From a virus, in IMG/VR virus record IMGVR_UViG_3300043424_000354, positions 32,001 to 96,000 of that record: DNA of 64,000 nucleotides; one strand, 5' to 3'. The notes beneath the pieces are model-generated. The model saw only the letters and a list, made by a program, of their open reading frames with translations, was not told the DNA's origin and searched no databases. Of the stretch, positions 2,998-58,390 are shown one piece after another (the stretch's first letter is position 1; each line of letters begins with the position of its first letter). The position numbers and the translations under genes are program-made.

Positions 2998-3005
2998 TAT
3001 TTATA
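2998..3005 (-). promoter_or_regulatory. T4-type late promoter TATAAATA upstream of gp13
   Basis: Exact TATAAATA on the minus strand about 22 nt before the gp13 ATG, followed by a GAGG Shine-Dalgarno. Confidence 0.85.
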
Positions 3006-40095: not shown

Positions 40096-40242
40096 ATGAA
40101 TTTTTACAAAGTAAATTTCATTTTGATGCACGAGCATAAATATAGTCTAACCGAATTAGAAAATATGATACCGTGGGAAAGGGAAGTATACATCGGGATG
40201 TTAATTACACATCTCAAAAAGAAAGCAGAGAACCAGGATTAA
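40096..40242 (+). CDS. gp51: Baseplate hub assembly catalyst (48 aa from ATG), not in ORF track
   Basis: NFYKVNFILMHEHKYSLTELENMIPWEREVYIGML signature. Confidence 0.88.
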   Translation: MNFYKVNFILMHEHKYSLTELENMIPWEREVYIGMLITHLKKKAENQD

Positions 40243-42416
40243 TGGAAAAACAACAATCTAATAAGGGTATTGGTAAAGAAAGTCAACTTTCTAGGATTGC
40301 TGCTGCAGTAAATCCCAGTTCCAATACTGCTGCAAATCCTGACTCCACTAAATCGATGATTCAAACATTCGTCAAACATTTTGACAGTGTTGCTTTAACA
40401 ATGGTCAACGAAATAGATGATGATCAAAGAGATCTAGTTAAAAACATGGTTGCAGAAATTACTAAACTGCAAACAAAGAATATTCAAGAATTTGAAAAAG
40501 CAATTGCTAAAATTGTTAGCATGTCAGAAAAAATGCTTGAAAGCAACAATCCCAACCTACAACAAATCGGGCAGGGGATGCAAGATCAAGCAAAACAAGA
40601 ACTGTTTAAGGCAAAGGGTATAACTCTATCGGGCGAACACGACACGTTCAGAAATCGCCTTAAACGAGAAATGTCTGGTGGAAATTTTGATCCAACCAAA
40701 CCAAAAGAAAAAACTTCCGGTCTCGGTAAGATCAAAGGTTACTGGGCAGATACTAAAAATGAATTCAAAAAGGGTGCGAGAGCTGCTGTTCAAGAGGGCA
40801 GTTTTGCAGATAGAGTATTCACAAGCGATGAAGACAAACGTAACCGCGAATTACAAAAACTAGAAAATTCTACAGGGGAAGATAAATCCGAATCCCTCGC
40901 AGATATGTTCAAAAAAACAATTGAACAACTGCTTGATAAATCTAAAGAAAATAAGGGTGGAACAGAATCCGCAAGTGATCAACAAGAAGATGCTGCTGGT
41001 ATTTCTAAAGATGCCATGATAGAAGCAGCACAAAAGACTGCTGAAACAAGCGGGATGATAGAAAAAAATACCAAGGATACTGCAGATACTCTACAGAAAA
41101 TCCTAGGTGAAGTAAAGCAAATCTCAGAAAAACTGAACACCATGGGATCTATTGGTGGCGATGGTGGAGGTGGTGGATTCGATCCAACGGATTTACTGGA
41201 TTTTGGCGGAGGCGGATCTAAGAAACCAAGAAGAGGTATGAGACTTCGCGGCCGAGGTAGACTCCTAAGAATGCGAGCAGGCAGAGCACTGCGAGGCGCA
41301 AGGTCGTTTGGTGGTCGTGTATTGGGTGGAGCAAGATCTCTTGGTGGTAGAGCATTGGGAGCAGCAAGAACTGCTGGTTCTACTCTCTTTAATGTTGGTA
41401 GAGCAGCAGTTGGCGGAATCAGTGGAACTGCAGTGCTGGCAGCAGGTGCAGCGGCAGCAGCAACAGGCGCTATTGTTTATGGCGCAGATAAATTTATTAA
41501 ATCTACGAACATGGGAGCAAGAAAGAAGCAGGAAGAGGGAACTGCAAAGTTCGGACTTACTGGCAATAATCTTGATGGATTTTCAATTAACGGAAAACCT
41601 GCTGGCAAATATAAAGATCTTCCCGAGTATTATAAAAACGTTGCGGATGGTTATGGTGCCAACAGTAGAGGCGGCGCTGCTGAACGAGCAAGACAATACG
41701 TCGAAACCCACAATCCAGATGGCAGTAAAAAGGTTGAGAAAAAACCTGCTGCTGTTGAAAAGGAAAAGAAAAAAACTGATGCCAAGGTAACTCCAAAGAC
41801 GCCAGCAAAACAAGTAACAACTCCACCACCAGTTGAGGCGGATGAAATCGTAGTTACTGCTTCAAAGAAAAAGAAAGCAGAAGTCGAGAAACCAAAGCAA
41901 GAAAAATCTGCCGCGACTTCTACGGTCAAAGAAGCAACAAAAGCAAGCGACAAAACTGCTGATTTAACTGCAGTTGACAAAAGCATCAAGGGTAAGGTTG
42001 CTGAAATTGATCCGAAAGGAAAATGGGCAAAACTCAAAGATGGTAAAATCGTAGATCCTGATTTCCCTAATGATGCCGATTCAAACTATACTGCTCAACA
42101 AGCATATAAGTTGAGTCAAAAGTCTGCCAAAGTTGCACCAAACCAAAATAATTCTGGCGAAACATTAAACGAAACCAGTAAGAAAGCAACAGCAAAAACT
42201 GAGACTGGTAGAAACGCAGATGGTGCGCTGATTGAAGCAGGAACTGCTGCCACGAAGGACAAAGTTAATGTAAATGTTCCTCCGCCAACAGTGATCAATC
42301 AGGGCGGCGGACAAGGAAATTCTGGTCCAAACATCACTGCTCCAGGTGGAGTAAGAAATGTCAGAGCAGACGAACCAAGTTGGTTGCGGTTCCAGCAAAA
42401 AAGAGCAGGGGGATAA
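40242..42416 (+). CDS. Probable tape-measure / baseplate hub protein (gp29-like)
   Basis: Follows gp26/51; helical, Gly/Ala-rich hydrophobic centre; C-terminal VNVPPPTVIN...VRN; likely start 40242. Confidence 0.65.
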   Translation: MEKQQSNKGIGKESQLSRIAAAVNPSSNTAANPDSTKSMIQTFVKHFDSVALTMVNEIDDDQRDLVKNMVAEITKLQTKNIQEFEKAIAKIVSMSEKMLESNNPNLQQIGQGMQDQAKQELFKAKGITLSGEHDTFRNRLKREMSGGNFDPTKPKEKTSGLGKIKGYWADTKNEFKKGARAAVQEGSFADRVFTSDEDKRNRELQKLENSTGEDKSESLADMFKKTIEQLLDKSKENKGGTESASDQQEDAAGISKDAMIEAAQKTAETSGMIEKNTKDTADTLQKILGEVKQISEKLNTMGSIGGDGGGGGFDPTDLLDFGGGGSKKPRRGMRLRGRGRLLRMRAGRALRGARSFGGRVLGGARSLGGRALGAARTAGSTLFNVGRAAVGGISGTAVLAAGAAAAATGAIVYGADKFIKSTNMGARKKQEEGTAKFGLTGNNLDGFSINGKPAGKYKDLPEYYKNVADGYGANSRGGAAERARQYVETHNPDGSKKVEKKPAAVEKEKKKTDAKVTPKTPAKQVTTPPPVEADEIVVTASKKKKAEVEKPKQEKSAATSTVKEATKASDKTADLTAVDKSIKGKVAEIDPKGKWAKLKDGKIVDPDFPNDADSNYTAQQAYKLSQKSAKVAPNQNNSGETLNETSKKATAKTETGRNADGALIEAGTAATKDKVNVNVPPPTVINQGGGQGNSGPNITAPGGVRNVRADEPSWLRFQQKRAGG

Positions 42417-42448
42417 AAAAGGGGAGCGTTTCGCTCCCCTTTTCTTTT
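42415..42448. terminator. Bidirectional intrinsic terminator
   Basis: AAAAAA-GGGGAGCG-TTT-CGCTCCCC-TTTTCTTTT between convergent genes. Confidence 0.92.
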
Positions 42449-43370
42449 AGTCGTCAGCGAGACTTGAGAAATAACTCATAGTATCATCGTCGCTGTCATC
42501 ATTCCAAGGTGGAGTATCCTCGGTCTTACGAGCAGCAGGTGCCGACATCATCTTGGTTTCAACGAACAGTTCGTCCTCAGCGTCCAGCGGATTAACCTTC
42601 TCAGCAGTTGCTACGCGAGCACCACCTGAAAGAACTGCATTCAACTTTGCCTTCAGTTCGTCATACGACTTGAAGTTAGCAGGGTCGAGGAACGCTGCAA
42701 GAGAGTGAGTGCTTTTCCAAACACGCTCGAGTTCTGCTTCGTCCTGCGAGAGAGGCGATGGCCCATCAAATTCCGACTTATCGTAGTTACGATAACCTTC
42801 AACCTGACGAATGCGCAACTTAAAGTTAGCACCTTCCCAGAGATCGAACGGATTGACAGGTTGCTCATCTTCGAACGTAGGTTGCATCACATCCTTGACC
42901 TTGTCAAAGATCTTCTTACCATACTTGTAGAGGAACACCTTACCTTCATTCTCAGGATTAGCAGGGTCACGAACAACCAGTACGTTTGAAACATACGAAA
43001 GGCGACGCTTCTGCTTACGAGCGATTTCCTTGTTCGCTTCGATACCAGAGTTCCACAGTTCGGAGTTAAGTTCTCCGACGGGATCGGGCTTGTTCAGAGT
43101 GGTCAGCGAGTTCTCGATATACCACTTACCAGTTGGACCCTGGAAACCATGGTCCCAGATACGAACCCAAGGAAGTTCTTCGCCAGCAGGAGCAGGAAGA
43201 AAACGAAGCACTGCTTGACCGTTACCTGCCTTATCGACAGTCGGTTTCCAGAAGCGATCATCATCGCCACGCTTTTCGTTTGATGGGTTTGCGATTGACT
43301 CAACTGCCTTCATGAGTGAGTCGAAATTTCCGCGATTCTTGCGGAGATCAGAAAGTGAATTAAAAGACAT
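42447..43370 (-). CDS. gp32: Single-stranded DNA-binding protein
   Basis: DDRFWKP..DKAGNG.AVLRFLP, HGFQGPTGKWYIENSLTT, YRNYDKSEF, acidic tail. Confidence 0.97.
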   Translation of the reverse strand: MSFNSLSDLRKNRGNFDSLMKAVESIANPSNEKRGDDDRFWKPTVDKAGNGQAVLRFLPAPAGEELPWVRIWDHGFQGPTGKWYIENSLTTLNKPDPVGELNSELWNSGIEANKEIARKQKRRLSYVSNVLVVRDPANPENEGKVFLYKYGKKIFDKVKDVMQPTFEDEQPVNPFDLWEGANFKLRIRQVEGYRNYDKSEFDGPSPLSQDEAELERVWKSTHSLAAFLDPANFKSYDELKAKLNAVLSGGARVATAEKVNPLDAEDELFVETKMMSAPAARKTEDTPPWNDDSDDDTMSYFSSLADD

Positions 43371-43561: not shown

Positions 43562-44161
43562 TTAATAAACCACTTCACCCTTCTCCTTGTTCCATAGGTG
43601 TAAGTATTTTTCTTTGTCGATCTTGACAAAGATCCTATACTTTTTAATAAGCAGCGAAATATCCTTCCAGATAAAATCGTATTGAAGAATATTATCATTA
43701 CTATACTTGAAATCAAACAATTTGTCAAGTATAATTACCGTCTCGAGTGAAATTTTTCCCCCGAGATACAGTCGAACAATCAATGGATGTTTACCGTTAT
43801 TAGCAGTAAACGGATCCTCTAGAGTTTTCTCTGCTTCGAGTAAGATGTTATTAATATCTTGTTTGAATACATATGAAAGTTTCTGTTGACGTATCTTCCA
43901 GTTTTCATATGCTTCTTCTGATTCAGAATCAAAAACTCCACCATACTTGTCGCCTCGTGTAAAATTGGCAACAAGAAAATCTATGATTTCTTTCTTGGAG
44001 TATTTCTCGCCGAGTTTTCTGAAGGCAATAATATCTTTACGTTTAAGAAAGGAATTTTTGCAATCCTTGACCATCCCCTTTGTTTTGGAGATGTCATATG
44101 ATTCTGTAGTGAAGTGCAATTTTATTGCCATGTATAGACGATAAACGTCATATGCATCCAT
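43562..44161 (-). CDS. gp59: Helicase loader
   Basis: YRLYMAIKLHFTTESYD, FLKRKD, FLVANF, GKISLETVIILD. Confidence 0.92.
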   Translation of the reverse strand: MDAYDVYRLYMAIKLHFTTESYDISKTKGMVKDCKNSFLKRKDIIAFRKLGEKYSKKEIIDFLVANFTRGDKYGGVFDSESEEAYENWKIRQQKLSYVFKQDINNILLEAEKTLEDPFTANNGKHPLIVRLYLGGKISLETVIILDKLFDFKYSNDNILQYDFIWKDISLLIKKYRIFVKIDKEKYLHLWNKEKGEVVY

Positions 44162-44430
44162 TAGATTGGCAGTTTGCCAGACTTTCTCTTCAAGAGGTTA
44201 AGTTCTTCTGCTTCCGCTCTAATCTTCTCTTTCAACGAAGAGGTGAGCAAGACAGCGACAGATTCCATTTCAATTTCTTTCTTGACACAATAGTCAACAA
44301 GAATATCCATACATGGAACATTATTTGTAAATGACTTTTTCTCGATGTACTGAGAAAATTCTGTCGCTGTCTTAAACTCTTTAGTAATCAAAAACTCGTT
44401 CGTAATTTGAGTCTCGTCCATAATTAACAT
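44161..44430 (-). CDS. gp33: Late promoter transcription co-activator
   Basis: FSQYIEK, YCVKKEIE, LKEKIRAEAEELNLL, C-terminal KLPI; start uncertain (44421-44436). Confidence 0.9.
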   Translation of the reverse strand: MLIMDETQITNEFLITKEFKTATEFSQYIEKKSFTNNVPCMDILVDYCVKKEIEMESVAVLLTSSLKEKIRAEAEELNLLKRKSGKLPI

Positions 44431-44441
44431 TTCCAAAGTTG

Positions 44442-45041
44442 TTATCCTGCATAAAAAATATGATCACCGATCTTTGCGACACGTCTTAGATTCCAACGAG
44501 GATTAACATAATCCGCATGGTAAAATAAAACGTTACGACCTAATATACCGTGATTTGCGCCAGAAAGCAATACTTTTTCTGCTACTTTCTTTGATTCCGC
44601 ATATTGTTGTGCACTGCGCACACGCTTTTTGCCTTCGCAAACCCAGGAGAATTGACAAGTCCGTCCCGTTTTCTGATACACCACAGAACAAACTGATTTT
44701 GGGAACTTCGGACTTTTTACGCGATTGATAGTTACGGCAGCAACTGCCAGTTTGCCATTAGTGGACTGATTCCCTGCTTCATAATAGATGTTATCAGCAA
44801 GGCATTTTAATTCGCGATTATTTGCTAGGTGTATATTTTGTGTTTTAATTTTACGAATTGCGGTCTTTTCTTTTTCCGCATCTTCTCGTATTTCTTGAAT
44901 TACTTCTCCGACGCCGAGGGAATATTCCCTTGCATCTCTTTCGATAGCATTTTCAGCATATGAATTGATTCCATATAAACTATAAACTAATACTGTAAAA
45001 ATCGAAAGAAACTTGAAAAACTTCTTATTTAAGGAAGTCAT
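44442..45041 (-). CDS. Cell wall hydrolase SleB (Hydrolase_2) with N-terminal membrane/signal anchor
   Basis: CLADNIYYEA, AVAAVTINRV, FPKSVCSVVYQ, CQFSW, FYHADYVNP, IGDHIFY. Confidence 0.92.
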   Translation of the reverse strand: MTSLNKKFFKFLSIFTVLVYSLYGINSYAENAIERDAREYSLGVGEVIQEIREDAEKEKTAIRKIKTQNIHLANNRELKCLADNIYYEAGNQSTNGKLAVAAVTINRVKSPKFPKSVCSVVYQKTGRTCQFSWVCEGKKRVRSAQQYAESKKVAEKVLLSGANHGILGRNVLFYHADYVNPRWNLRRVAKIGDHIFYAG

Positions 45042-45199
45042 CTTATTTCCTAAAGGTTGTTAAACTTGAGAGGGTATTTACCAGTGACTCCCCACACTGG
45101 GTCGTAAACGACAAAATCCCCCGATGCTTTGCTGTCACCAGATCGGCACCGAGGGATTCATATAATTATTTATTGATTTGAAACCCTATGTTAACTCGT

Positions 45200-45565
45200 T
45201 CCACCGCTGTAATAGAACGGATGGTAGTTTTTTCTGTTTCGAGGAAAAACTACCAAAACCCAAGGAGATCACGCTGCTAGGCGCATCTCAAAGGCAACAT
45301 TATCGTTTGCTGCATTTACGTTTTGCGGGCACTTTACCCAAGCAATCAGTCTACTCTCGCCTTCAACTCGCAGTCGAATCCTAAGTACGCCCCCATCATA
45401 GATACTGCCCGTTACTGACGCATCACGCAATCTCGTCTTGGGTTTTTATTTCGCTACGCTGGAAGATACCCTATCTCCCTTGTGCCACTTGACAGTATCT
45501 ATGGTGGAGGCGAGGGGAGTTGCACCCCTGTCCTACGAAGCATTCAGTTTGTATCAACAACTGAT
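45200..45565 (-). ncRNA. ssrA: Circularly permuted (two-piece) tmRNA
   Basis: Acceptor piece ends ...AGGGGTGCAACTCCCCTCGCCTCCACCA (CCA end at 45502) and precedes the coding piece starting GGGGGCG at 45394; G3:U70 pair; tag frame 45313-45269 reads (A)ANDNVAFEMRLAA-stop; outer ends approximate. Confidence 0.92.
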
Positions 45566-45569
45566 AATC

Positions 45570-45600
45570 TATTTATACTATACTGATCTTTAAAAGTCAA
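45570..45600 (-). promoter_or_regulatory. Overlapping sigma70 and late promoter for the tmRNA
   Basis: TTGACT (45595-45600), 17-nt spacer, TATAAA that extends to an exact TATAAATA (45570-45577). Confidence 0.8.
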
Positions 45601-45605
45601 GTATT

Positions 45606-45779
45606 TTATGCTTCCCAGGGAAGTTTTTTTCCTACTGAACCCCATTTTCCTATTGGGCAGGATGCTCGATTCAGTTTAGTTTTTGCTGGCATGAGGCAAC
45701 CGCACTTCATACACAACCGTGCTTTGTAAAACTCGCATCCCTTGCAAATTGCCAACCTTTGCTCGGAAAGTTCGCTCAT
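45606..45779 (-). CDS. Small Cys-rich protein (57 aa, DUF6171-like), not in ORF track
   Basis: RLAICKGC...CMKCGCLMPAKTKL...SCPIGKW; ATG overlaps the end of the exonuclease gene. Confidence 0.8.
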   Translation of the reverse strand: MSELSEQRLAICKGCEFYKARLCMKCGCLMPAKTKLNRASCPIGKWGSVGKKLPWEA

Positions 45780-46456
45780 GCTGACCAGTAACCGTTTTCG
45801 AAGTAATCGCGAGTACGGATTAGTTCTTTTGTCCAGTCATCACGACGTTCGATGAAGACTTGAGGTTCGTCATCTTCGACAGCAACCAGAATAACCAACC
45901 AAGGAATAGGAATCCCAGTCCGTTCCTCATACATGATAGCATACGCTGCTGCCTGCATGAAGTAGGAGTGGATCTGCGATTTATATTTTGCCTTATTGGC
46001 AGTCTTGAAGTCGATAACTGCACGCTTGCCATTGTATTCAGCAATACAGTCTACACGACCTGCCATGCGAAGGTGATCGCTGTAGAGCGCAAGCTCCTGG
46101 CAGTGAATATCACCGATGGAATCCAGAACAGGTTTAAACTTCTTGAACATCTCAACGTCAAGTAGAGATGCCTTCGTAGTTGTATACGCTTCTTCTAGAT
46201 CTTCGTTTTTGAGATATGCTTCAGTTAGCGAGTGAATCTTAGTTCCGCGAGTGGTCGCTTTCTTAGAAACCTTGTTCGCTTCTTCTTCGCCAACTCGTTT
46301 GCGCCAAGCAGTGATAGCATCACGAGAGAGAACAGACAGAACGGTGGTGGCAGAAGGATACGCAGCGCCAGAGGCATTTACGTAAACTCTACCACCATCT
46401 TCGTTCGTTACTGATTGGGCGAAATCTTCATATTCATAGATCGTTTTAAACATCAT
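45776..46456 (-). CDS. PD-(D/E)xK exonuclease (Cas4-like phage exonuclease)
   Basis: YPSATTVL, RGTKIH, AGRVDCIAEY, VIDFKT, YFMQAAAYA. Confidence 0.9.
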   Translation of the reverse strand: MMFKTIYEYEDFAQSVTNEDGGRVYVNASGAAYPSATTVLSVLSRDAITAWRKRVGEEEANKVSKKATTRGTKIHSLTEAYLKNEDLEEAYTTTKASLLDVEMFKKFKPVLDSIGDIHCQELALYSDHLRMAGRVDCIAEYNGKRAVIDFKTANKAKYKSQIHSYFMQAAAYAIMYEERTGIPIPWLVILVAVEDDEPQVFIERRDDWTKELIRTRDYFENGYWSA

Positions 46457-46494: not shown

Positions 46495-47250
46495 CTAATT
46501 AAATTTTTCTTCGTATTCCATACGAGCAAGGATATATTCCTTAACAAGTTTAGAACGGACGATATCGTTAGCAGAAAACTCCACTGTCTTAAAAGAGGGC
46601 ATCATGTCAGCAATCGCAATGAATTTTTGCAACCCAGACATATCGTTCTTTTTATATAGGTCAGTTTGACGGAAGTCTCCGCAGAAAATAATCTTGGAGT
46701 TTTTACCGATTCTCGTCATGATAGAGTTTAGTTCCATGTCAGTCATATTCTGACATTCGTCGACAATGATAATAGAATTATCAAGAGTTATACCACGCAC
46801 GAACGAGGTGATTAGGAAATGAACGGTCTTTTGTTCCTGCAGGCGCTGGAATGGTTGAATATGGTTGATTAAATCTTCGCATATCTCAACGTAAGGTAAA
46901 GTATAGACCTCTGTTTTTTCCTTCTCGTCACCTGGAAGGTGTCCGATATCTCTTGATGGTACTGCCGAGCGAACCACAACTAAACGCTCGAAAACTGATT
47001 CTGGATCTAGAACTTCTTCTAGTGCTTTATACATTGAAATGAAAGTTTTACCTGTGCCTGCTACACCATGTAGAAGCATCGCAGTGGACTGTTGATCATA
47101 AAGGTCGAAAAATACTCTTTGGTTTTGTGTTTTTGGTTGAATACCTGTTAGATCTTCGTATTTGACTTTGCATAGTTTACTTTTTTCGATTGTTACCTTT
47201 GGTTCAGAATTCGAGACAATTTGTAAATTATTTTGTTTTCTTCTCGACAT
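46495..47250 (-). CDS. phoH: PhoH family ATPase
   Basis: GVAGTGKT, VVRSAVP..IGHLPG, SFVRGITLDN, VDECQN, GDFRQTDL, DIVRS. Confidence 0.95.
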   Translation of the reverse strand: MSRRKQNNLQIVSNSEPKVTIEKSKLCKVKYEDLTGIQPKTQNQRVFFDLYDQQSTAMLLHGVAGTGKTFISMYKALEEVLDPESVFERLVVVRSAVPSRDIGHLPGDEKEKTEVYTLPYVEICEDLINHIQPFQRLQEQKTVHFLITSFVRGITLDNSIIIVDECQNMTDMELNSIMTRIGKNSKIIFCGDFRQTDLYKKNDMSGLQKFIAIADMMPSFKTVEFSANDIVRSKLVKEYILARMEYEEKFN

Positions 47251-47281
47251 AACAGTCCTTATTTTATCTAGAGTTGATACG

Positions 47282-47314
47282 AAAAAGGCGACACCACACA
47301 AGGTGGAGTCGCCC
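47282..47314 (-). terminator. Intrinsic terminator upstream of phoH
   Basis: GGCGACTCCAC-CTTGT-GTGGTGTCGCC (one internal mismatch) followed by TTTTT. Confidence 0.75.
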
Positions 47315-48227: not shown

Positions 48228-49661
48228 TTAAAAGACCTTCACATTATACATGCCTTGAAACATCTTAGCGTCTTTCTCGTCATTAACCATCGGAAATCCT
48301 TTAATGTTCAGACTAGTATTGAGTAGCATCGGACAACCCGACCACAGATACCATTCGTTCAAGAGATTCCAAAGATCAGGATGCTGTTCTTTTGTTACAG
48401 TCTGGACGCGAGAAGTCCCGTCTGCATGAACAATAGCAGGAAACTGATCAGGATATTTACATCTTGAAGTATATTGCATATACGGGGATGATTCAACTGG
48501 CATGTCAAAATATTCGCTTGCATGCTCTGCCATGATGACAGGCGCGAATGGTCTAAATTTTTGCCTTCGTTTGATTGCATTTACTCTATCCTTAATATCA
48601 GATCTTGTGGGATCTGCGAGCAAACTCCGATTACCCAACGCTCTGGGACCAAACTCCGCAGGTCCATTAGCAACACCAACTATACCTGATTTTCGCAGTT
48701 CTGTCAATAGATTTCCAATAGGATATGGTCCAGGAATATTTTCGCCGAGATATGGACCCTTCCAGTTTAGTTTCCTGCGATTATTAGCAGCGATTGCACC
48801 AAGACTGCTTCCTGCGTCTCCTGGGTTTGGCATAATCCACAAATTTGGGAAGTATTCTATGGCAATAGAATTTGCGCTGCAGTTTAATGCACATCCACCC
48901 ATGATAACAAGGTTGCGCTGTTTCCAGTTTGTCAGGTTGCCTGTTCTTACAATCAAATCTCTGAAGAGAACTTCGTAAACCCACTGCGCAGATGCAGCAA
49001 TATCATAATGATCTTGCTCAGTATTAAGTTCTGGTTTCCACCACTGACAACCGCGATGTAGATTTTCTTCATTGTAAAGATTCAATAATTCAAGACCGTA
49101 TTTGTTTTTACCGTATGCCGCCATACCCATGAGGATATATTCGTCCTCGTTCGGTTTTAACCCAACACGCTGTGTCATTGCTGAATAAAAAAGACCGATG
49201 GACTTGGGATATTCCATCGACCAAACCTTCTTCATCTTCTCACCAGATGCATTCCATATAGTGGCAGTATCAAACTCACCAATCGCATCGATTACTAACA
49301 CAGCAGCATCATCGAACGGTGAAGTATAGAATCCTGCCGCAGCGTGAGATTCATGGTGATATGCAAACTCTACGGGGATACCTTCCAGACCGAAGTGCTT
49401 CAGATACTGGCGAACGCTGAAACGAACTAGACCTTGACCTGCTAGAAATCTGCGCATTCCTCGAAGTTTAGGTTTCTCATACCAGTGTATTACTTCTGGT
49501 TTACCAAACTCTAATGCTGCGTTGATCAGGTCAGCATTTAGATGCTTGTCGTTTTTGATTCCGCTGTAACGCTCTGCATGAGAGGCGAATAAAATTTCGT
49601 CACCCTCCACTACGGTAAGAGCAGCATCATGCGCTGCGGCAGAGATTCCCCATTCAATCAC
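48228..49661 (-). CDS. Carbamoyltransferase (NodU/CmcH family)
   Basis: GISAAAHDAA, HHESHAA, VIDAIGE, LMGMAAYG, GGCALN, PGDAG, EFGPRALGNRSLLADP, FRPFAP, LLNTSLN. Confidence 0.95.
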   Translation of the reverse strand: MIEWGISAAAHDAALTVVEGDEILFASHAERYSGIKNDKHLNADLINAALEFGKPEVIHWYEKPKLRGMRRFLAGQGLVRFSVRQYLKHFGLEGIPVEFAYHHESHAAAGFYTSPFDDAAVLVIDAIGEFDTATIWNASGEKMKKVWSMEYPKSIGLFYSAMTQRVGLKPNEDEYILMGMAAYGKNKYGLELLNLYNEENLHRGCQWWKPELNTEQDHYDIAASAQWVYEVLFRDLIVRTGNLTNWKQRNLVIMGGCALNCSANSIAIEYFPNLWIMPNPGDAGSSLGAIAANNRRKLNWKGPYLGENIPGPYPIGNLLTELRKSGIVGVANGPAEFGPRALGNRSLLADPTRSDIKDRVNAIKRRQKFRPFAPVIMAEHASEYFDMPVESSPYMQYTSRCKYPDQFPAIVHADGTSRVQTVTKEQHPDLWNLLNEWYLWSGCPMLLNTSLNIKGFPMVNDEKDAKMFQGMYNVKVF

Positions 49662-50986
49662 TTATATAACCATTCAAGTTCTGGAAAGGTTTTCATGAAA
49701 TCTGTATTTCGAACATTATCAAGTTTGGAATATTCTTCCATATGTTTTAAGTAATCTTCGCCGTCATAATCAAAGAAATCCATGTCTTTTTGATCAATTT
49801 TTCGCATTTCTTTGATTTTTTCTATTGAATTAATAATACTTTGTTTTTTATATGGATTAGAAGCATTCGGTATGACAGTATCCAAATACCATGTTTCAAA
49901 CTCCTCTAACGACCGAATAACATATTCCCAGTGTTGCTGTGGAATATTCATTACATTCAAATGCTTTGGTGTTCGTATTAGATTGGTAAACAAGAAATAT
50001 TCAAAGGTTGGATGATATTTGTTACTTTCCTGATATATACCTATAGAAAGAAATTCTTGAACCATTTCCTTTAATCTGTGCATATTTAAGGCACTCAATA
50101 CAGGTGCAATACACAATTTATGCGTAGGATTATGTTCAGTGTTTATTTCCTCGAAGCAATCATGAATTTTTTTGAGATTCTGTGAAACACTATCCCATTT
50201 TGCGGGCCACCGTATATAATTAAATCTATCCCCGACTTCATCGATACTCGCCATTATTAACACTGATTTAAACTGTTTCCAGTACTCTAGAACATCTTTA
50301 TCCTTATTCTTCAGCGTGCTACAATTTGTAGAATATACAAGATCAATTTCTTTTGCTCGATCTGCCTCTATAAGTTTATCAAGAGTATACCAGTGATATT
50401 TTGACAACATCGGTTCGCCTCCAGCAAAATAAATGTTATCAACGCTGTCCAAATTATCATCAATTAATTGATATGCTATCGTATCGTCAGTTGGTTCGAT
50501 AAATTTCGGAGAAGTTGGAGGTATATTTAATTTTTGCATGAGATCATACCAACTAGAACTCAACGCATGACCGCAAGTAATGCATGCTTGGTTACAATGA
50601 TTGGAGAATCTAAAATCAATATACTTCAATTTGTTCGTAGTCATTGATCCATCTTCAAGTAACTGACTCATGTAATAATCATAATTTGATTCGTATTGGG
50701 TGTTGCGCCACTTTCTTGAACTGGTATCGGAAAACTTTTCAGTGTCATAACAGAAAGAACATATTGGATTCTTTTCACCTGCTATCATTCTACGTCGAAA
50801 TTCTTTATACTCTTCGCCATTCCAAATTTCTTCCCACGAAGAAACCATGTTTATATTTCCAAGTGGCGGTTTTGTCATGTCCCCCACGCAACAAGGCATA
50901 ACATTTCCGTTAGGTGCCACGTATGTATGGAGCAATCCCAACATACAAAAAGAAGGATTTTCTTTGAGATTATAATCTTTAGTCAT
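49658..50986 (-). CDS. Radical SAM protein with N-terminal twitch/SPASM-like Cys domain (rSAM6)
   Basis: CNQACITC, FAGGEP, N-terminal FC..PCC..CSFC. Confidence 0.92.
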   Translation of the reverse strand: MTKDYNLKENPSFCMLGLLHTYVAPNGNVMPCCVGDMTKPPLGNINMVSSWEEIWNGEEYKEFRRRMIAGEKNPICSFCYDTEKFSDTSSRKWRNTQYESNYDYYMSQLLEDGSMTTNKLKYIDFRFSNHCNQACITCGHALSSSWYDLMQKLNIPPTSPKFIEPTDDTIAYQLIDDNLDSVDNIYFAGGEPMLSKYHWYTLDKLIEADRAKEIDLVYSTNCSTLKNKDKDVLEYWKQFKSVLIMASIDEVGDRFNYIRWPAKWDSVSQNLKKIHDCFEEINTEHNPTHKLCIAPVLSALNMHRLKEMVQEFLSIGIYQESNKYHPTFEYFLFTNLIRTPKHLNVMNIPQQHWEYVIRSLEEFETWYLDTVIPNASNPYKKQSIINSIEKIKEMRKIDQKDMDFFDYDGEDYLKHMEEYSKLDNVRNTDFMKTFPELEWLYK

Positions 50987-51083
50987 AGATAAATGGATCC
51001 AATTTTTTCAATTTCTCTAATCTCTTCTTTAATTTTCTTTTGCGAATTAATGCACGAAATAATTCTACTATCTTGTTAACCAT
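50979..51083 (-). CDS. Small basic peptide (34 aa) ending DPFIYD, not in ORF track
   Basis: MVNKIVELFRALIRKRKLKKRLEKLKKLDPFIYD; GGGAG Shine-Dalgarno; overlaps both neighbours. Confidence 0.75.
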   Translation of the reverse strand: MVNKIVELFRALIRKRKLKKRLEKLKKLDPFIYD

Positions 51084-51879
51084 CTATAACTCCCGTCGTG
51101 ATTAATTCATCAAACATATGATTGGCGAATTTCTTGTGAACATCGACAACTGGATGCCCCCATCCATGCGTATATTTCTCTATCTCCTCCACGACCACGA
51201 AATTAGAAAGAGAAACTTCCGGAGACAACAAATTATCAAACTTTACATTGTCCAACCAAGGTAATTTACTTTTATACCCGCTCAATACTAATCGAATTGA
51301 TTGTAACGATTGAACTGTCATGACAATTTTCAACCTATTACCCAAAGATTTTGACAGGTAGTCTAGATATTTTGCATGCTTGATGTATTCCCACATCAAA
51401 TTACAATCTGTTGCCCACGTGTCTAGTAATGCATCGTTCAACTTGGCACTGTGCGTCCATCGAGAATCTCCCACGAATTTGGTAATCATTATTCCGGAAT
51501 CGGAAACCCAAGAAAATCTTACTGGACAAGTTAAACCAACAAAAATAAGATCAGTTTCTACGATTTCATTGGAAACAATATCGCGTTCAATGTTGTAGAT
51601 AAACTCGTTTATACTAGTTCCCATTTTAGCGCGATTTGAACACGAGACCCCCAACCGCTCTGCGATATAATTAGGCCAAGCAAGTTGTGATGACAATAAT
51701 GTGCAACGAATTCGCGTTTCCTCATTCCCATAAACACCCTCGACGCAATGTATACCATGCTTGCGTTTGTAAGCATCAATTTCTTCATGCGGTTTGTTCA
51801 AGATAATAGCATCTGCCAGTTCTTGCCCAGCAGTGTAACTGCAACCATATGCAACTACTCTATTAATATTGAGTGCCAT
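51076..51879 (-). CDS. SGNH/GDSL-hydrolase-like protein
   Basis: AYGCSYTAG (block I), AWP, NRAKMGTS, C-terminal GHP...H. Confidence 0.7.
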   Translation of the reverse strand: MALNINRVVAYGCSYTAGQELADAIILNKPHEEIDAYKRKHGIHCVEGVYGNEETRIRCTLLSSQLAWPNYIAERLGVSCSNRAKMGTSINEFIYNIERDIVSNEIVETDLIFVGLTCPVRFSWVSDSGIMITKFVGDSRWTHSAKLNDALLDTWATDCNLMWEYIKHAKYLDYLSKSLGNRLKIVMTVQSLQSIRLVLSGYKSKLPWLDNVKFDNLLSPEVSLSNFVVVEEIEKYTHGWGHPVVDVHKKFANHMFDELITTGVIDG

Positions 51880-53009
51880 TCTGGAAAACTTTCGTTAAAA
51901 TGGTTGTTTCTATACTTATCATGCGAAGAAGTTACTCGCAGAAATTGATTAAATTCTTCTGAATCGGATATATTACTTCCTAACATATTAGTTATAACAT
52001 CAAGTTTATCCGAGTATGCAAGCAGACGATCGCGTACGAGTTCTTTTTTATTTTCTGGTATGTTAGTTATACTGAGATGCGTAGGAGTAAATAACATATT
52101 GTAGTATATACCAATATGCGGAAAATTTTCTCGCATAAATTGATCAAAATTAACTGTATCCCAAATATTATATAGACTTACGGTATAGCAAAAATCAACT
52201 GTTATATTATTGTTTTCCTGCATAAGATCTGAATACTTACGAATAACATCCAGTACAGTATCCCATTTTGCTGGATATCTCATATATTCGAATGCAGAAG
52301 CAATACCATCAATGGAAAGAGAAATATTCACTTTCTTAAATTGTTTTAGTATTGTTATTTGATCATCAGACGGATATATTGTTGAGTTGGTGTTAAAATG
52401 GAGTTCTTGCGTCTGCGCATTACCCTCGTTTACGGATTTGCCGAGTATTTCCCACGATCGTTTAATTAATAGAGGTTCTCCACCGTAAAAGTCTATGGTG
52501 CTCGCCTTAGGTATCCAATCAACAAGAGTATTCCACACATTAGTGTTGCTGTCATCATATATGTGCTGTATCTTTTTATATCTACTAAGAAAATCAGTTT
52601 TATTTTGCCAAGAAGCATTAATATCAAACCATTCGTTTACCCAAGAACTGCTGCTATCTGGATTACAAGTTCTACAACGCAAGTTACATGCATTGCCAAG
52701 TTTTAAATCCAATAATTGCGGAGTTTCCGCTGCCAACAGATCTCTATTATTTTCTCTCTGTCGTTTGCTTTCTCTACCATTTCTTTCTTCAATCCAGCAT
52801 ATATCACAAGTTGGATTTTCAATTCCTGCTTCTAAATCCCATAGAAGTTTCTTTCTAGAATCAGATTGCCAAATATCTTGTAAAGAATCTTTACTTAGAT
52901 TGTATTCCTCGCCTGCTTTATCGGCAAATGGTTTTGCTAAGCAACATGGTCTTACTCTACCGACAGTATCGATTTCTATACCACATAATGCCTGCAAACA
53001 GGTTTTCAT
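51855..53009 (-). CDS. Radical SAM protein with twitch-like domain (rSAM5)
   Basis: CNLRCRTC, FYGGEP, RPCC, CDICW, SIDG..FEYMRYP. Confidence 0.92.
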   Translation of the reverse strand: MKTCLQALCGIEIDTVGRVRPCCLAKPFADKAGEEYNLSKDSLQDIWQSDSRKKLLWDLEAGIENPTCDICWIEERNGRESKRQRENNRDLLAAETPQLLDLKLGNACNLRCRTCNPDSSSSWVNEWFDINASWQNKTDFLSRYKKIQHIYDDSNTNVWNTLVDWIPKASTIDFYGGEPLLIKRSWEILGKSVNEGNAQTQELHFNTNSTIYPSDDQITILKQFKKVNISLSIDGIASAFEYMRYPAKWDTVLDVIRKYSDLMQENNNITVDFCYTVSLYNIWDTVNFDQFMRENFPHIGIYYNMLFTPTHLSITNIPENKKELVRDRLLAYSDKLDVITNMLGSNISDSEEFNQFLRVTSSHDKYRNNHFNESFPEWHSILIE

Positions 53010-54208
53010 AATTGTTCGGCCCAAGGATGCGTCTCAAAAAGATTTTGTCCGCGAATACCGTCCAAAAGTTTCTGTTTTTCCACAAACTTTTTCTGCAACA
53101 CACTGTTAGTCAAATTAGATGTATTACTTTCAAGGTAATTGATTGTGTTTCTAATTTCATGACGATTGATTGTAATTTTTTCTTTAATGTTTTTTAGTTC
53201 TTGTAGATAGGAATAATAATAGGACTCCGGCATTACATCTGCTTGTAAGAAATCCGGACGGTTAACAGGAATAACACCCATAGAAAGACCAAGTTCTTCG
53301 CACCACAAGAATAAATCACGAAGCGAGTTATTAGACAAAGTGAGATTTTGCAAAGTCGGCGTCACACCGCATTCAATATTTTTGAATTCGGAAATTTCCG
53401 ACATCAGCAATTTCATATTTCCTTCGATGGTTGTCCATTTAGCAGGATTGCGGATATACTCATATTGTTTACCCATTCCGTCGATACTCACGTTCAACTG
53501 AACAAACTTAAACTTCTTCCACATATCAATGAATTTCTTACCCAAGAAAATACCATTTGTATTGTATACGAGTTTAATTTTTGAAGAACTACCCGTCTCA
53601 ATCAAGTAAGTCAGAAGTTCTTCATGCGCATCAATAATAAGAGGTTCCCCTCCGATCATATAGATTTCCTGCAGAGTATCTAGATGTGGAGTAACAACAT
53701 CACGCATATTGACGTTATCAACCCACTCAGAGGAATCATATCCCATCTCATAATATTCTCTAGACTCAGCATGAGTTTGAACTTCCTTGCCAATCAGAGA
53801 ACTACTAAACGGTGCGCACATTCTGCACCTGAGATTGCATTTTTTACCCAGATCAAATTCTATTCTGAAAATTCCCAGTGGTTGCTCATCTTTTATTTGC
53901 TCGTAGATATCTGAATATCTCTGATTAATTGACTGACGAAAACTCTGCATACCAGAATCTTCCATCTTCCAGCAGCGTCCACACAAAGGATGCCTTTTTC
54001 CTTCTAACATATATTCGCGCAATTCTTTGTGCGTGTGTGTATTCAGAAATCTGTCGACAGAATAATCTTCAAGTTGATTTATATTTGCCTTAACACCCTT
54101 CTCGCTTTCGATCTCAGCATAGATTGCATTACAGCAAGGTCGCAATCCTCCATTAGATCCGATACTCAACAACATCCAAGGATAGGCGCATACTGTGTTA
54201 TTTTCCAT
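53006..54208 (-). CDS. Radical SAM protein with twitch-like domain (rSAM4)
   Basis: CNLRCRMC, IGGEP, CAYPW..RPCC..CGRCW. Confidence 0.92.
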   Translation of the reverse strand: MENNTVCAYPWMLLSIGSNGGLRPCCNAIYAEIESEKGVKANINQLEDYSVDRFLNTHTHKELREYMLEGKRHPLCGRCWKMEDSGMQSFRQSINQRYSDIYEQIKDEQPLGIFRIEFDLGKKCNLRCRMCAPFSSSLIGKEVQTHAESREYYEMGYDSSEWVDNVNMRDVVTPHLDTLQEIYMIGGEPLIIDAHEELLTYLIETGSSSKIKLVYNTNGIFLGKKFIDMWKKFKFVQLNVSIDGMGKQYEYIRNPAKWTTIEGNMKLLMSEISEFKNIECGVTPTLQNLTLSNNSLRDLFLWCEELGLSMGVIPVNRPDFLQADVMPESYYYSYLQELKNIKEKITINRHEIRNTINYLESNTSNLTNSVLQKKFVEKQKLLDGIRGQNLFETHPWAEQL

Positions 54209-55478
54209 CGGATTGTTCTCGTTCTTTTTGTTTGATTATCCCACGACTTGTTGTTCCTAGTTCGCCCTGATCCAGATTGTTATATTCTTCACCACAACAA
54301 GCACTGCACTGATAACTTCTCATTTCATGTTCGCGGTTAAAACTCAACGGAAGATACCGTTGATACAAAGGCGAAGCAATGATTTCTTCGATTGAATTTT
54401 TATGAAGAGAAATAGATTCCATACCACCATTCAAATCGATCATTCTTACCGATGAATCGTTTGTATTCCAAGTATCTGAATTTGATCTCCACTGTTCCCC
54501 GCCAAGGAAACAGCACGGATACACATTACCTGCACCATCGACAAAGATTTCATTCAAATTTTGATACTTGGATTTTCTTGCTCTACAAACAATCCCTAAT
54601 GAGTTATGTTTGATTGAAGTATATTCCTTGCTCTCTGGATCGAAAACGTATATTTCCTTTTTAGATTTTGGATCCGGTGATAGTCTGTTAAACTCATCAT
54701 TTGTAATATACTGCGGAATTAATCCCTTTGCTGCACGTTTGAACTCTACCGAGTTTTCATTTTGATAGATAGGATTAGTTGGTTGCTGCAGAGTATGGGT
54801 GTGCTGATCATTATCATAAACATCGAAGTATCCCATACCGTCTTTGTATGAATGCCACCTTGTTGTCTTCTTGATATTAAAGAATGTAAATCCCAATTCC
54901 TCTGCAATCTTTCTTGCTTCTTCTACCTGATGTTCATTGTGCTTGAATACAATATAATCCCATCGCGCCTTACCGCCAGCAGAGGTAAATGCTTTCATGT
55001 TTTCGTAAATCTTATCGAAATTAGTATTTCTTCTATAGAGATGGTTTGTATCCCACAATCCGTCTACTGAAAAGATGACATAATCCTGTCGTGTTCCATC
55101 CGGACCGCCATTCATAACGGTTGCCAATTCTTCCCACCAAGACTTAGATCTGGCGCTCCCATTAGTATGAATAACCAACCCAACGCGATCATTACACGAT
55201 CTAATATATTTGTAAATTTCTAACGTGTCTTTTGCAGCGACTGGATCGCCGTAGTTACCGCATGCATAAATTCTTCGCATTTGCGAAAGGAATTCCGGAG
55301 AGAACCAAGTTTTGAACTGTTCTAGAGTGATTTCCGTCATTGGTAAAATAGGATTCAGCATATTTCCGTGACTTATATAACGCGGACACATTGGGCATGC
55401 AGCATTACATCTAGTCGTCAGTTCTAAATGCATACCAGTAAGTTCGCGATGAGATGCGTATAACGGTTCAACCATCAT
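54198..55478 (-). CDS. Radical SAM protein with C-terminal SPASM/twitch domain (rSAM3)
   Basis: CNAACPMC, CGNYGDP, FSVDG, FKHNEHQ, C-terminal VYPCC..CSACC. Confidence 0.92.
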   Translation of the reverse strand: MMVEPLYASHRELTGMHLELTTRCNAACPMCPRYISHGNMLNPILPMTEITLEQFKTWFSPEFLSQMRRIYACGNYGDPVAAKDTLEIYKYIRSCNDRVGLVIHTNGSARSKSWWEELATVMNGGPDGTRQDYVIFSVDGLWDTNHLYRRNTNFDKIYENMKAFTSAGGKARWDYIVFKHNEHQVEEARKIAEELGFTFFNIKKTTRWHSYKDGMGYFDVYDNDQHTHTLQQPTNPIYQNENSVEFKRAAKGLIPQYITNDEFNRLSPDPKSKKEIYVFDPESKEYTSIKHNSLGIVCRARKSKYQNLNEIFVDGAGNVYPCCFLGGEQWRSNSDTWNTNDSSVRMIDLNGGMESISLHKNSIEEIIASPLYQRYLPLSFNREHEMRSYQCSACCGEEYNNLDQGELGTTSRGIIKQKEREQSDGK

Positions 55479-56877
55479 TTAATTCCTTGCACATGTAATA
55501 AAAATTCTCGTATGCTGGGAACAATTCCAACAGACCAAGACCAACAGTTCTCTTATCGTATTCAGTAAAGAATTTATAAAAATCCTTTCTACCGTTTTCA
55601 ATCAATTTTTCATCAATGCGAGGACCGCCTTGGTAAAAGTAATTCCGAACACGCTTCATCTTTTCGAACTCTTGTTCCTGAAATCCATGCACTAATCCTG
55701 GTGCAGAGATATTATCCTGAATGAACAGAAGATCCGAATCAATATACTTTCCGAACTCTTCCTTTGGTAGAAGATTGATCATCCAGTGAGGAGGTTCTTT
55801 CAGATATGGAGTGTCAAACATAATACGATTTTCATAAGGGTTGACATTCCACTTCTTACGAAGTTCTAGAATCTTTTCTAAGAATGGGCGGAAAGAAGCA
55901 ACACACAGAATATTATAAGTGCACATAATACTAATTGAAACATTAGGAACAGTTTCTAGAAATGTTTCAACATTCTTCAACCAAAGATCCTGATTCAATC
56001 CTCGACGCATATACTCTGCTTGCGGACCCCACGCTTCAAGAGAAGTATAGAGTTTAAAGTCCTTGATCTTTTTCTTTTCTAAAAGATTTTTGGCAGAATC
56101 CGATAGACGTTGAACTCGATTATTACTAACACCAAGATTACTGTTGATATTCAATTCTAAATGTTTCGTATCATCACCTTCTTCCAACATCTTCATGAGT
56201 TTCATGGTGTTGGGATTGATCATCGCTTCACCACCCGTAAGACGAAGAACGCGAAGATCTTTCTTTAGATCAGGCCACCACTTCCAGAATGCATCGACGT
56301 ATGGATTTTCTTCGTCGTCGCGGTAAACCTTTGTATTCTTCAGGTAATCAATTCCGTATTGATTGTAACTGATGTCATAGTTACCATGTTCGCGAATTTC
56401 CTGTTCCCATAGAGATGATGCTTGCGGGCAACAATAACCGCATTTGAAGTTGCAACCATTACCGAAACTTACTTCTAAGAAATATGGATTATAATCCTGA
56501 TCCCAAGGAAGGTTTTTTACCCTTTCGGTTTCTTCCTTTGCATCAATCCAAGTACTCGCATTATGAAACATTCTATCGCTGAAGTGTTCTCCGGGAAGAT
56601 TTTCCACGTTCCAGCAGTAATAACATTCTTCTGGTCGACCGCCCTCGAGCATGATCTTGCGTTGCTGCTTTTTCCACTTTGTATTGTGAAGAGCAGAAGG
56701 GTTCTCTGCAATTTCTTCAAGAGGAATGCGTTGTGGTCGAGGGTGGTAACAACTATGATTGTCACCCATATGCAAATATAGAGTTTCGTGCCTCCATTTC
56801 TGCAGACAGAAACCGTTTCCGACTGTATTAAGAGTATCGCGTACTTCGCGAACTCTGTCTAGATAACTATTGCTCAT
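55468..56877 (-). CDS. Radical SAM protein (rSAM2)
   Basis: FCLQKW, HSCYHP, ECYYCW, CNFKCGYC, TGGEA. Confidence 0.92.
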   Translation of the reverse strand: MSNSYLDRVREVRDTLNTVGNGFCLQKWRHETLYLHMGDNHSCYHPRPQRIPLEEIAENPSALHNTKWKKQQRKIMLEGGRPEECYYCWNVENLPGEHFSDRMFHNASTWIDAKEETERVKNLPWDQDYNPYFLEVSFGNGCNFKCGYCCPQASSLWEQEIREHGNYDISYNQYGIDYLKNTKVYRDDEENPYVDAFWKWWPDLKKDLRVLRLTGGEAMINPNTMKLMKMLEEGDDTKHLELNINSNLGVSNNRVQRLSDSAKNLLEKKKIKDFKLYTSLEAWGPQAEYMRRGLNQDLWLKNVETFLETVPNVSISIMCTYNILCVASFRPFLEKILELRKKWNVNPYENRIMFDTPYLKEPPHWMINLLPKEEFGKYIDSDLLFIQDNISAPGLVHGFQEQEFEKMKRVRNYFYQGGPRIDEKLIENGRKDFYKFFTEYDKRTVGLGLLELFPAYENFYYMCKELNDG

Positions 56878-58390
56878 TTTTGCATCTCTCATAAAAATTA
56901 ATTAATTCAGGAAACGTTTGTTTAAAATTCGTGTCTCTGCGTCTATCTAACTCGTCAACGTATTGAGAAAAGCGAATCATATCCACATACAATTCTTCTG
57001 GTTTTTGCCCTGCTCGCATTATATCTAGGTCGCGCTGAACCTTGTCAATTTCATACTGCCTGAAACCAGTAAAGCACAGAGCAGCAGGATAAACATTGTC
57101 AGAGGTATCGAGATTATCTCTCATAAACTGCAGGCAATCCTCCATAACATCAATCATCTCAGTTCCAGCAAGCATCTTGATATTCAACCATGTTGGTGTG
57201 TGTAAAATGGGAATATCAAACCAAATTCGTTGACGCTTCTTACGAACTATAGAGGGATGCCCTTCTATCCCCATCATCTTTTCTGGTTGCGCGTCAGAAC
57301 CGAACTCTTGGCGCAATTTTAAAATCCACTGTAAAAATTGTTTTAGGTTCGGGACGCTCAAGATATTAAAGGTGTTAATAAATGTAACATTGGTACCGTC
57401 GGTGGATCTCAAGAATTCTCTGACATTTGCATCCAAACGTTGAAAATTCATACCTGTTCGAATGTATTCTGCTTGTTCTCCATAAGAATCGCAAGATACG
57501 AACAATGAGAAATGTTTGATCGCGGGAGCAACATACGAATGATTGCCGCTGTCGTAGTTGAATTTGTCAGGATCTTCCCAGATTCTAACCTGTTCTAATT
57601 TCTGAACTGAAGAAACAAACTTGTCAAACAATTCTTGCTTTGGTGGGCACAGATTACTAGTAATACTCAACTCAAGATCAGCATTGGGATGCTTGTCTAC
57701 ATAATCAAGAACCTTGAACGTGTTATTATCCATTAAAGGTTCTCCGCCAGTCATGCGGAAAATTTTAAGGTTCTTATAGAGTTCGGGCCACCATTTCCAG
57801 AATGCTTCGACGTAGGGATTTTCTTTTTGAGAAACTTTCTTTGGCATCAATCCATATGAAGTCAATGCACCAAGATCATTGTGCGCTGCTTGCTTTAAAA
57901 TATATGGACCAAACTTCTCTGCTTCTTCGTGCCAAGCAGTACTAAGATGAGGACTGCAGTAGATGCATTTAAAGTTACACGCCTGATTGAAGTTTACTTC
58001 CACGTATGCGGGAGTAATTTGATCATCGATGTCTTTGTTAAATGCAATCTTCTCAAAATCAATAGAGTTCCACCATTCGCTGCTGCGATAGTGTCGATCA
58101 CTAGTATGCCCTGCGTCCTCGATACGCCAACAATACGAACATCCCTTTGGTCGTTCGCCCCTGCGCATCATAGCACGTTCTTCGATTTTTTGTGGAGTGT
58201 TGTGAAGTAATCCAGGATTTTCTGCTAACCCATCAACAGGAATGTCATGCGCGGGCGGGTGATAGCAACTATGCGTCTTACCATTAGTAAGGTGCATACT
58301 TACCATATTCCATTTTGCTAGGCAGAAAGTTGGACTTATGTCATCAAGTTTTCTTTTTGTCTCTTGCGCAGAATCACTATAATCCGTCAT
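56867..58390 (-). CDS. Radical SAM protein (rSAM1), paralog of rSAM2
   Basis: FCLAKW, HSCYHP, GCSYCW, CNFKCIYC, TGGEP, NPYVEAFWKWWP. Confidence 0.92.
   Translation of the reverse strand: MTDYSDSAQETKRKLDDISPTFCLAKWNMVSMHLTNGKTHSCYHPPAHDIPVDGLAENPGLLHNTPQKIEERAMMRRGERPKGCSYCWRIEDAGHTSDRHYRSSEWWNSIDFEKIAFNKDIDDQITPAYVEVNFNQACNFKCIYCSPHLSTAWHEEAEKFGPYILKQAAHNDLGALTSYGLMPKKVSQKENPYVEAFWKWWPELYKNLKIFRMTGGEPLMDNNTFKVLDYVDKHPNADLELSITSNLCPPKQELFDKFVSSVQKLEQVRIWEDPDKFNYDSGNHSYVAPAIKHFSLFVSCDSYGEQAEYIRTGMNFQRLDANVREFLRSTDGTNVTFINTFNILSVPNLKQFLQWILKLRQEFGSDAQPEKMMGIEGHPSIVRKKRQRIWFDIPILHTPTWLNIKMLAGTEMIDVMEDCLQFMRDNLDTSDNVYPAALCFTGFRQYEIDKVQRDLDIMRAGQKPEELYVDMIRFSQYVDELDRRRDTNFKQTFPELINFYERCKNEQ

Follow-up and report, generated by a model that had tools for sequence, protein, structure and literature searches.

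Phage-Encoded and Two-Piece tmRNAs

Genes for circularly permuted, two-piece tmRNAs have already been published for phage Melnitz and for the pelagimyophages, the closest relatives of the phage considered here (Buchholz et al., 2022; PMC9004378), and the locus described below is an ordinary member of this class. Fifty-three phage two-piece tmRNAs, 50 of them from aquatic samples, have been reported in 18,146 phage genomes, 17 of 47 Melnitz-like contigs were found to carry one (PMC9004378), and 79 phage tmRNA sequences have been catalogued (PMC11915505). Melnitz, an OM43/Methylophilales phage, is likewise a T4-like marine myophage of Kyanoviridae-like type (Buchholz et al., 2022; PMC9004378). 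The sequence analyzed here, referred to as the window, is a stretch of 64,000 nucleotides that corresponds to bases 32001-96000 of a linear IMG/VR viral contig of 108,631 bp, estimated to be 66% complete. In both Melnitz and the window, ssrA lies in the same neighborhood, which consists of PhoH, a PD-(D/E)XK nuclease, a small ORF, ssrA, gp33, gp59, and gp32, and both genes have the permuted order, a 14-residue ANDN...LAA tag, an early-type promoter, and a spacer closed by a stem; no SmpB gene was found with either. In the phage collection, only the four isolates of Methylophilales phage Melnitz gave DNA matches to the locus, in each case in the annotated SsrA gene.

The two genes nevertheless differ in several respects. 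Their DNA is 72.5% similar, over 108 nt only; the Melnitz gene scores 113 bits with the Rfam model RF04321 and 107 bits with alpha_tmRNA, compared with 75 and 42 bits for the window; the tag is ANDNYVPVDYALAA in Melnitz and AANDNVAFEMRLAA in the window; and Melnitz encodes tRNAs, whereas no tRNA gene was found on the window's contig (~66% complete). A glutamine riboswitch in the 3′ domain is common, but not defining, for ssrA genes of the Melnitz/pelagimyophage type (PMC9004378). In Melnitz MZ577097, this element (RF01739, 52.8 bits) was located immediately 3′ of ssrA (L001:6423-6471); no match to it was obtained in the window at E-values up to 10, nor in the two nearest relatives of the window, the viral contigs L055 and L058, at E-values up to 0.01. 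The particulars of the present locus are its tag variant, the lack of a detected riboswitch, a strictly conserved promoter, and a covarying stem that closes the spacer.

Among cellular genes, the nearest type is the alphaproteobacterial two-piece tmRNA, for which Caulobacter crescentus provides the prototype and which is represented by RF01849 and RF04321. The window shares with this type the permuted order, the encoded CCA, a tRNA-like domain formed by two RNAs, the G3:U70 pair, the inter-piece helix P2, and tag forms of the ANDNVA.../...RLAA kind; it departs from it in an RF04321 score of about half the norm, in failing the RF01849 cut-off, in a spacer of 107 nt against a cellular median of 31 nt, in being phage-borne, and in possessing a T4-type late box. 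Two-piece tmRNAs of cyanomyophages and marine picocyanobacteria (RF01851) are also permuted, and their carriers include related T4-like marine phages, but the tag of the window is of the ANDN type rather than the cyanobacterial one, and the cyanobacterial model gives only 20.9 bits. The one-piece tmRNAs of the mycobacteriophage Bxz1 group and of Bacillus phage G, and the DS6A tmRNA that consists of the tRNA-like domain only (PMC4131195), are further cases of phage ssrA without phage SmpB, and are presumed to act with host factors, as here; these genes are standard one-piece or truncated ones, not permuted, and belong to unrelated phages of Gram-positive hosts.

Gene Call and Anatomy of the Two Pieces

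On comparative evidence, the locus is a real split ("two-piece") tmRNA gene that is well conserved and carried by an uncultured T4-like marine phage. ARAGORN, run with default settings, called a permuted tmRNA at 45178-45594 on the minus strand with the tag AANDNVAFEMRLAA, and the Rfam model tmRNA_permuted (RF04321) matched over its full length (model positions 1-213) at 45565-45269 and scored 75.3 bits, well over its gathering score (47; E = 1.3e-12). The proposal of an earlier note on this DNA, made from the letters alone, that the phage encodes a circularly permuted two-piece tmRNA with a tag ending in ...LAA is supported by these results. The same note had expected that standard scans may miss the gene, which did not prove to be the case, as the default scans of both ARAGORN and Rfam found it. 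Read along the minus strand, the order is TTGACT, 17 nt, the box TATAAATA, 4 bases, an acceptor piece of ~64 nt, the spacer, and the coding piece. The positions and pairings that the note had read on this strand, namely the CCA end at 45502, the 107-nt spacer, G1 at 45394, the G3:U70 pair, and the hairpin, were all reproduced, and its two inter-piece pairings, CTGCGAG/TTCGTAG and GACTGAT/ATCAGTT, are complementary.

The acceptor piece (45502-45565) was delimited from the Rfam alignment, the 3′ tRNA domain of ARAGORN, and covariation counts, and its 5′ end was provisionally placed from the position of the promoter. It comprises the 5′ strand of P2c (45565-45560), the 5′ strands of P2a (45540-45538 and 45535-45533), the T arm (45529-45513), the acceptor 3′ strand CGCCUCC (45512-45506), and the discriminator A with the encoded CCA (45505-45502). 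The coding piece (45190-45394, minus strand), of ~205 nt with an approximate 3′ end, was defined from the Rfam alignment, ARAGORN, covariation, and comparison with relatives. It begins with the acceptor 5′ strand GGGGGCG (45394-45388) and continues with a D-loop analogue that contains an invariant TCGAC, the 3′ strands of P2a (45373-45371 and 45369-45367), and the 3′ strand of P2c (45350-45345), followed by the tag, the post-tag hairpin, and a conserved 3′ tail that closes the piece; homology with L055 and L058 extends to ~45193. A terminator scan called no terminator-like site on the tmRNA strand.

The tRNA-Ala-like domain formed by the two pieces is complete, with a 7-bp acceptor stem containing G3:U70, A73, a 3′ CCA end, and a T arm of a 5-bp stem and a 7-nt loop. 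The T loop, UGCAACU, has G where U55 is usual, a feature common to most of the phage relatives. In the Rfam alignment, the P2b helix of the RF04321 family is mostly unpaired in the window. When the two pieces were co-folded by minimum free energy (MFE), the acceptor stem appeared and P2 did not; the alternative pairing with the 3′ tail that this fold offered was rejected, as it finds no comparative support.

Conservation and Covariation

A pattern search of IMG/VR for the T arm and acceptor end retrieved more than 119 loci, among which ARAGORN recognized 67 permuted and 19 standard tmRNAs. For the covariation counts, the window was aligned with 24 phage homologues that have long ANDN-type tags, and base pairs were taken from the structure of the Rfam alignment. 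All 25 sequences have fully paired acceptor and T stems and show no variation at G3:U70, in the TCGAC motif, or at the CCA end. Acceptor pair 6:67 connects the two pieces over the spacer; 14 sequences have G-C here and 11 have A-U. The proximal P2a pairs and two T-stem pairs covary freely, as exemplified by a proximal P2a pair that is UA in 11, AU in nine, and CG in five sequences and is never unpaired, and changes on both sides were counted at all six pairs of P2c. Overall, 83.6% of the cells were paired, compared with 43-50% when the partners were slid, and the covariation score was 0.399, compared with at most 0.085 in the slid controls. The covariation of these predicted helices in the 25 homologues is far beyond chance, and the gene is, judging from its stems, the in-frame indels of its tag, and its conserved promoter, maintained by selection.

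A lineage-specific 22-mer, drawn from the P2 portion of the coding piece, was present in 16 viral contigs; bacterial genomes, one for each of 185,579 species, gave no genuine match to it. The sole bacterial match (L277) lies in a GC-rich coding region that has neither a tmRNA nor phage genes and was rejected as a chance occurrence. A T-arm/acceptor pattern with the UGCRA T loop was also tried on bacterial genomes as a probe for a donor lineage; it returned one-piece tmRNAs from many unrelated phyla and was discarded as uninformative.

Tag Sequence and Post-Tag Hairpin

The tag frame called by ARAGORN (45269-45313, minus strand) reads GCA GCA AAC GAT AAT GTT GCC TTT GAG ATG CGC CTA GCA GCG TGA and translates as AANDNVAFEMRLAA followed by a stop, with an Ala resume codon at its start and a hydrophobic ...LAA end. 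In the ARAGORN call, as in the family alignment, the first of the two GCA codons is the resume codon, a small departure from the earlier note, and the window has one GCA more than its nearest relatives. Among the 16 contigs that carry the 22-mer, three tags occur: ANDNVAFAGYALAA in eight, ANDNVAFALAA in six, and AANDNVAFEMRLAA in the window and in L281, an independent contig with an identical tag. All differences among these close relatives are in-frame indels that keep ANDNVAF...LAA and the stop. Tags starting with ANDN were found in 29 of 31 sampled cellular alphaproteobacterial genes, among them ANDNVAQARLAA and ANDNNYAEARLAA, and the ANDNVA...RLAA pattern of the window fits such tags, for example ANDNVAQARLAA.

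An 11-bp hairpin in the P5/PK2 region follows the tag (45222-45255, minus strand; TGGTAGTTTTT/AAAAACTACCA), and the MFE fold of 45186-45268 has -21.7 kcal/mol with z = -2.2. One compensatory change, from GGTAG/CTACC to GATAG/CTATC, distinguishes this hairpin from that of L055 and L058. The hairpin loop CUCG could form a pseudoknot with a downstream CGAG; both elements are invariant in the window, L055, and L058, and hence give no covariation signal. The MFE fold also contains a second hairpin at about 45219-45197, which is not claimed here, since L055 and L058 have an A-to-C change by which its pairing would be disrupted.

The Intervening Segment

Between the encoded CCA and G1 lies a segment of 107 nt (45395-45501, minus strand), which is presumably removed. 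A closing stem of 9 bp is formed between its ends, where 45501-45493 (TAGATACTG) pairs with 45407-45399 (CAGTATCTA), as indicated by both covariation and the MFE fold of the precursor. All nine pairs covary, with 86.6% of cells paired compared with 34-61% when the partner is slid, and in the precursor MFE fold, in which ACCA lies opposite UGAU, the acceptor stem is lengthened to a helix of ~20 bp. Among near-identical relatives, spacer length runs from 53 to 151 nt; the closing stem is intact, but the interiors are unrelated to one another. The median spacer length is 65 nt (range 4-159) for 67 viral genes and 31 nt (range 5-55) for 31 cellular genes, a set biased to the best scorers. The conserved closing stem is consistent with a processing substrate, and the precursor would be cleaved into two stable RNAs. 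The spacer of the window holds no gene, its longest complete ORF being five codons. In another viral contig (L060:1818-2171; IMGVR_UViG_3300031802_000177), the permuted-tmRNA spacer of 159 nt is filled by a 48-codon ORF that starts with ATG and has a hydrophobic C-terminal half.

Promoter and Late Boxes

Upstream of the acceptor piece on the minus strand, a σ70-type (early) -35-like box, TTGACT (45595-45600), and a T4-type late motif, TATAAATA (45570-45577), are each unchanged in all 15 related viral contigs, and the latter is at a fixed distance of 4 nt from the first helix. The first six bases of TATAAATA, TATAAA, also serve as a -10 hexamer 17 nt past TTGACT. In each of the 15 contigs, the upstream region consists of CTTGACTT and TATAGTATAAATA, separated by a stretch whose length is constant and whose middle varies, and then of four bases and ATCAGTTG. 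The dual promoter described in the earlier note is thus conserved throughout this set. A σ70 scan made no call at the ssrA promoter, because TATAAA lacks the conserved final T.

On the contig, the minus strand has 17 copies of TATAAATA and the plus strand has none, with 5.4 copies expected per strand. Within the window, its first base lies at minus-strand positions 3005, 6114, 13824, 16286, 24675, 24827, 29848, 37421, 43465, and 45577, and most copies are just upstream of minus-strand genes. This strand bias and placement fit a T4-type late promoter motif, and the putative early and late elements may, as the earlier note suggested, allow expression throughout infection.

Downstream of the tmRNA, the leader of a hydrolase-like gene (window 45042-45174, minus strand) contains a long hairpin and a block, CCAGTGTGGGGAGTCACTGG, that is conserved in L055 and L058; at the head of this leader, L055 and L058 have a perfect TATAAATA, whereas the window has AATAAATA. 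No terminator-like site was found between the tmRNA and this leader, and read-through is therefore possible.

Subtype and Host

For subtyping, the curators of the tmRNA database recommend three older clade models (PMC11915505). Scanned against the contig, alpha_tmRNA (RF01849) gave 42.4 bits (cut-off 50), beta_tmRNA 37.4 bits (cut-off 84), and the cyanobacterial model 20.9 bits (cut-off 70), the last confined to the tRNA-like part, so that all subtype scores fall below their thresholds and alpha exceeds beta by 5 bits. The nearest relatives are split, with L055 matching alpha best (49.2 bits) and L058 matching beta best (52.1 bits). RF04321 matched in 148 of 151 sampled alphaproteobacterial genomes, mostly with 120-170 bits, and only three of these cellular matches span more than 297 nt, the span in the window; the sample includes one unpublished genome (G045), on which no claim rests. 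Of the two computational checks named in the earlier note, ARAGORN returned a permuted call and alpha_tmRNA remained below its cut-off. Its description of the gene as of alphaproteobacterial type therefore stands for the tag, with its ANDNVA...RLAA pattern, and does not stand for the subtype models, given the alpha score and the preference of L058 for beta. The tag looks alphaproteobacterial, and the RNA body appears to be a divergent phage form. Clade-specific Rfam models under-score these phage copies, and the newer merged model finds them.

The earlier note had also named an alphaproteobacterium as the host. Such a conclusion from the tmRNA subtype is unsafe, because Melnitz, with a clear alpha-type ssrA (alpha_tmRNA, 106.7 bits), infects a Methylophilales bacterium (Methylophilales sp. 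H5P1), a mismatch between subtype and host that was stressed by its authors (PMC9004378). Given this counter-example, and given that the present sub-lineage was found in 16 viral contigs but not in any bacterial genome, a host cannot be identified from its tmRNA subtype, and the host claim was not sustained.

Proposed Function and Alternative Readings

The locus is probably a functional ssrA gene in circularly permuted order, belonging to a marine myophage that is T4-like and lytic. A single precursor would be transcribed from the conserved promoter that combines σ70-type -35/-10 elements with a T4-type late box, starting at or beside the first helix, and would fold so that the acceptor stem runs into the 9-bp stem closing the 107-nt spacer. 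As is generally understood for the two-piece tmRNA of Caulobacter, processing would remove the spacer, here by host tRNA-processing enzymes, with RNase P acting at G1 (45394) and a 3′ nuclease at the encoded CCA. The products would be the acceptor piece of ~64 nt and the coding piece of ~205 nt, joined through the acceptor stem and helix P2. Host AlaRS would charge this RNA through G3:U70 and A73, and host SmpB would bring it to stalled ribosomes, where the nascent chain would gain (A)AANDNVAFEMRLAA; the resulting peptides would end in ...NDNVAFEMRLAA, and the LAA end would direct them to ClpXP-type proteases. The steps of excision, charging by AlaRS, delivery by SmpB, and degradation through ...LAA follow general tmRNA biology (PMC3985003). 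No SmpB gene was found on the contig (~66% complete) or in the complete Melnitz genome, and the RNA would therefore have to use host SmpB. The likely benefit would be that ribosomes are kept free during infection, when the decay of host mRNA yields many non-stop messages and the host's genes, its ssrA among them, are no longer transcribed. A role against defenses that cleave tmRNA or tRNA, put forward in the earlier note, is a further conceivable benefit. For Melnitz, the freeing of ribosomes was offered as an explanation, alternatively to the tagging of host proteins for recycling (PMC9004378).

The dependence on host SmpB also admits a reading in which the phage tmRNA out-competes the host tmRNA for a limited supply of this protein and re-tags stalled products with a phage-specific variant, which would alter the targets of degradation, such that, for example, host protein is recycled to amino acids or phage products are spared. 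We regard this as unlikely. As no phage SmpB was found, both tmRNAs would have to share the host protein; the conserved promoter, with its early and late elements, looks strong; and otherwise near-identical genes have three tag variants (...AGYALAA, ...ALAA, and ...EMRLAA). A tmRNA consisting of only the tRNA-like domain was reported to inhibit tmRNA, perhaps through titration of SmpB (PMC4131195), and selective tagging was proposed for Melnitz (PMC9004378). All of the variants, however, keep the ANDN start and the LAA end of cellular tags, and nothing therefore points to a different protease fate. In its fullest form, in which an early-plus-late promoter, host SmpB, and a phage-chosen tag together make a takeover device and the hypervariable, stem-closed spacer, far longer than those of cellular genes, marks a phage-specific maturation route, the idea is similarly doubtful; if true, the ~20-bp helix might, for instance, be cut by a double-strand-specific RNase, and three tag variants would be swapping inside one phage lineage.

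It is very improbable that the gene is a non-functional passenger, that is, a decaying ssrA copy taken from a host by illegitimate recombination. Such decay could account for an Rfam score that is low beside those of cellular genes, for subtype scores that are all under threshold, and for the poor pairing of P2b, but it is contradicted by the compensatory changes in the acceptor, T, P2, and closing stems, by the invariance of G3:U70, TCGAC, and CCA, by tag indels that stay in frame, by the conserved promoter, and by a syntenic position across the phage group, isolates included.

The preferred reading, a functional phage ssrA, makes the locus one more well-supported example of a published class, in which abundant marine T4-like phages have their own ribosome-rescue RNA. 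Its promoter, spacer closing stem, and tag variants provide concrete handles on the use of trans-translation by phages.

Phage Genomic Context

A PHROG search identified genes on both sides of ssrA as phage genes. On one side are PhoH (46495-47301) and a PD-(D/E)XK exonuclease (45776-46456), followed by a small, conserved ORF between the nuclease and ssrA; on the other are the hydrolase-like gene of 199 aa (44442-45041, minus strand), gp33 (44161-44436), the gp59 helicase loader (43562-44161), and the gp32 single-strand DNA-binding protein (42447-43370). Elsewhere in the window, PHROG found baseplate and structural genes of T4 type. The gp32 protein shares 65% identity with its Melnitz counterpart and 56-63% with its counterparts in cyanomyophages. 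No integrase was found on the contig, and from this together with the T4-like context it follows that the gene belongs to a lytic T4-like phage rather than to a host with a neighboring prophage. The alternatives, a chromosomal ssrA of the host flanking an integrated prophage or an ssrA fragment at a phage attachment site, can accordingly be dismissed as almost certainly wrong, even though prophages and genomic islands often integrate at ssrA (PMC11915505, PMC9004378), since the gene is complete, lies on a viral contig inside a T4-like replication/late-transcription module, and has the same place in the lytic isolate Melnitz.

Three other regions of the window were recorded. A 747-aa ORF on the opposite strand (40173-42416, plus strand) has no PHROG match and is situated in a region with an extreme purine skew (GC skew 0.14, AT skew 0.27). 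A run of minus-strand genes (48228-58971) that includes a Nol-like carbamoyltransferase and several proteins with radical-SAM domains resembles a phage-borne biosynthetic or modification cluster. Finally, a 2000-aa ORF (16434-22436, minus strand) matches phrog_358, a family of unknown function, with 1377 bits and represents a giant conserved protein that is likely structural.
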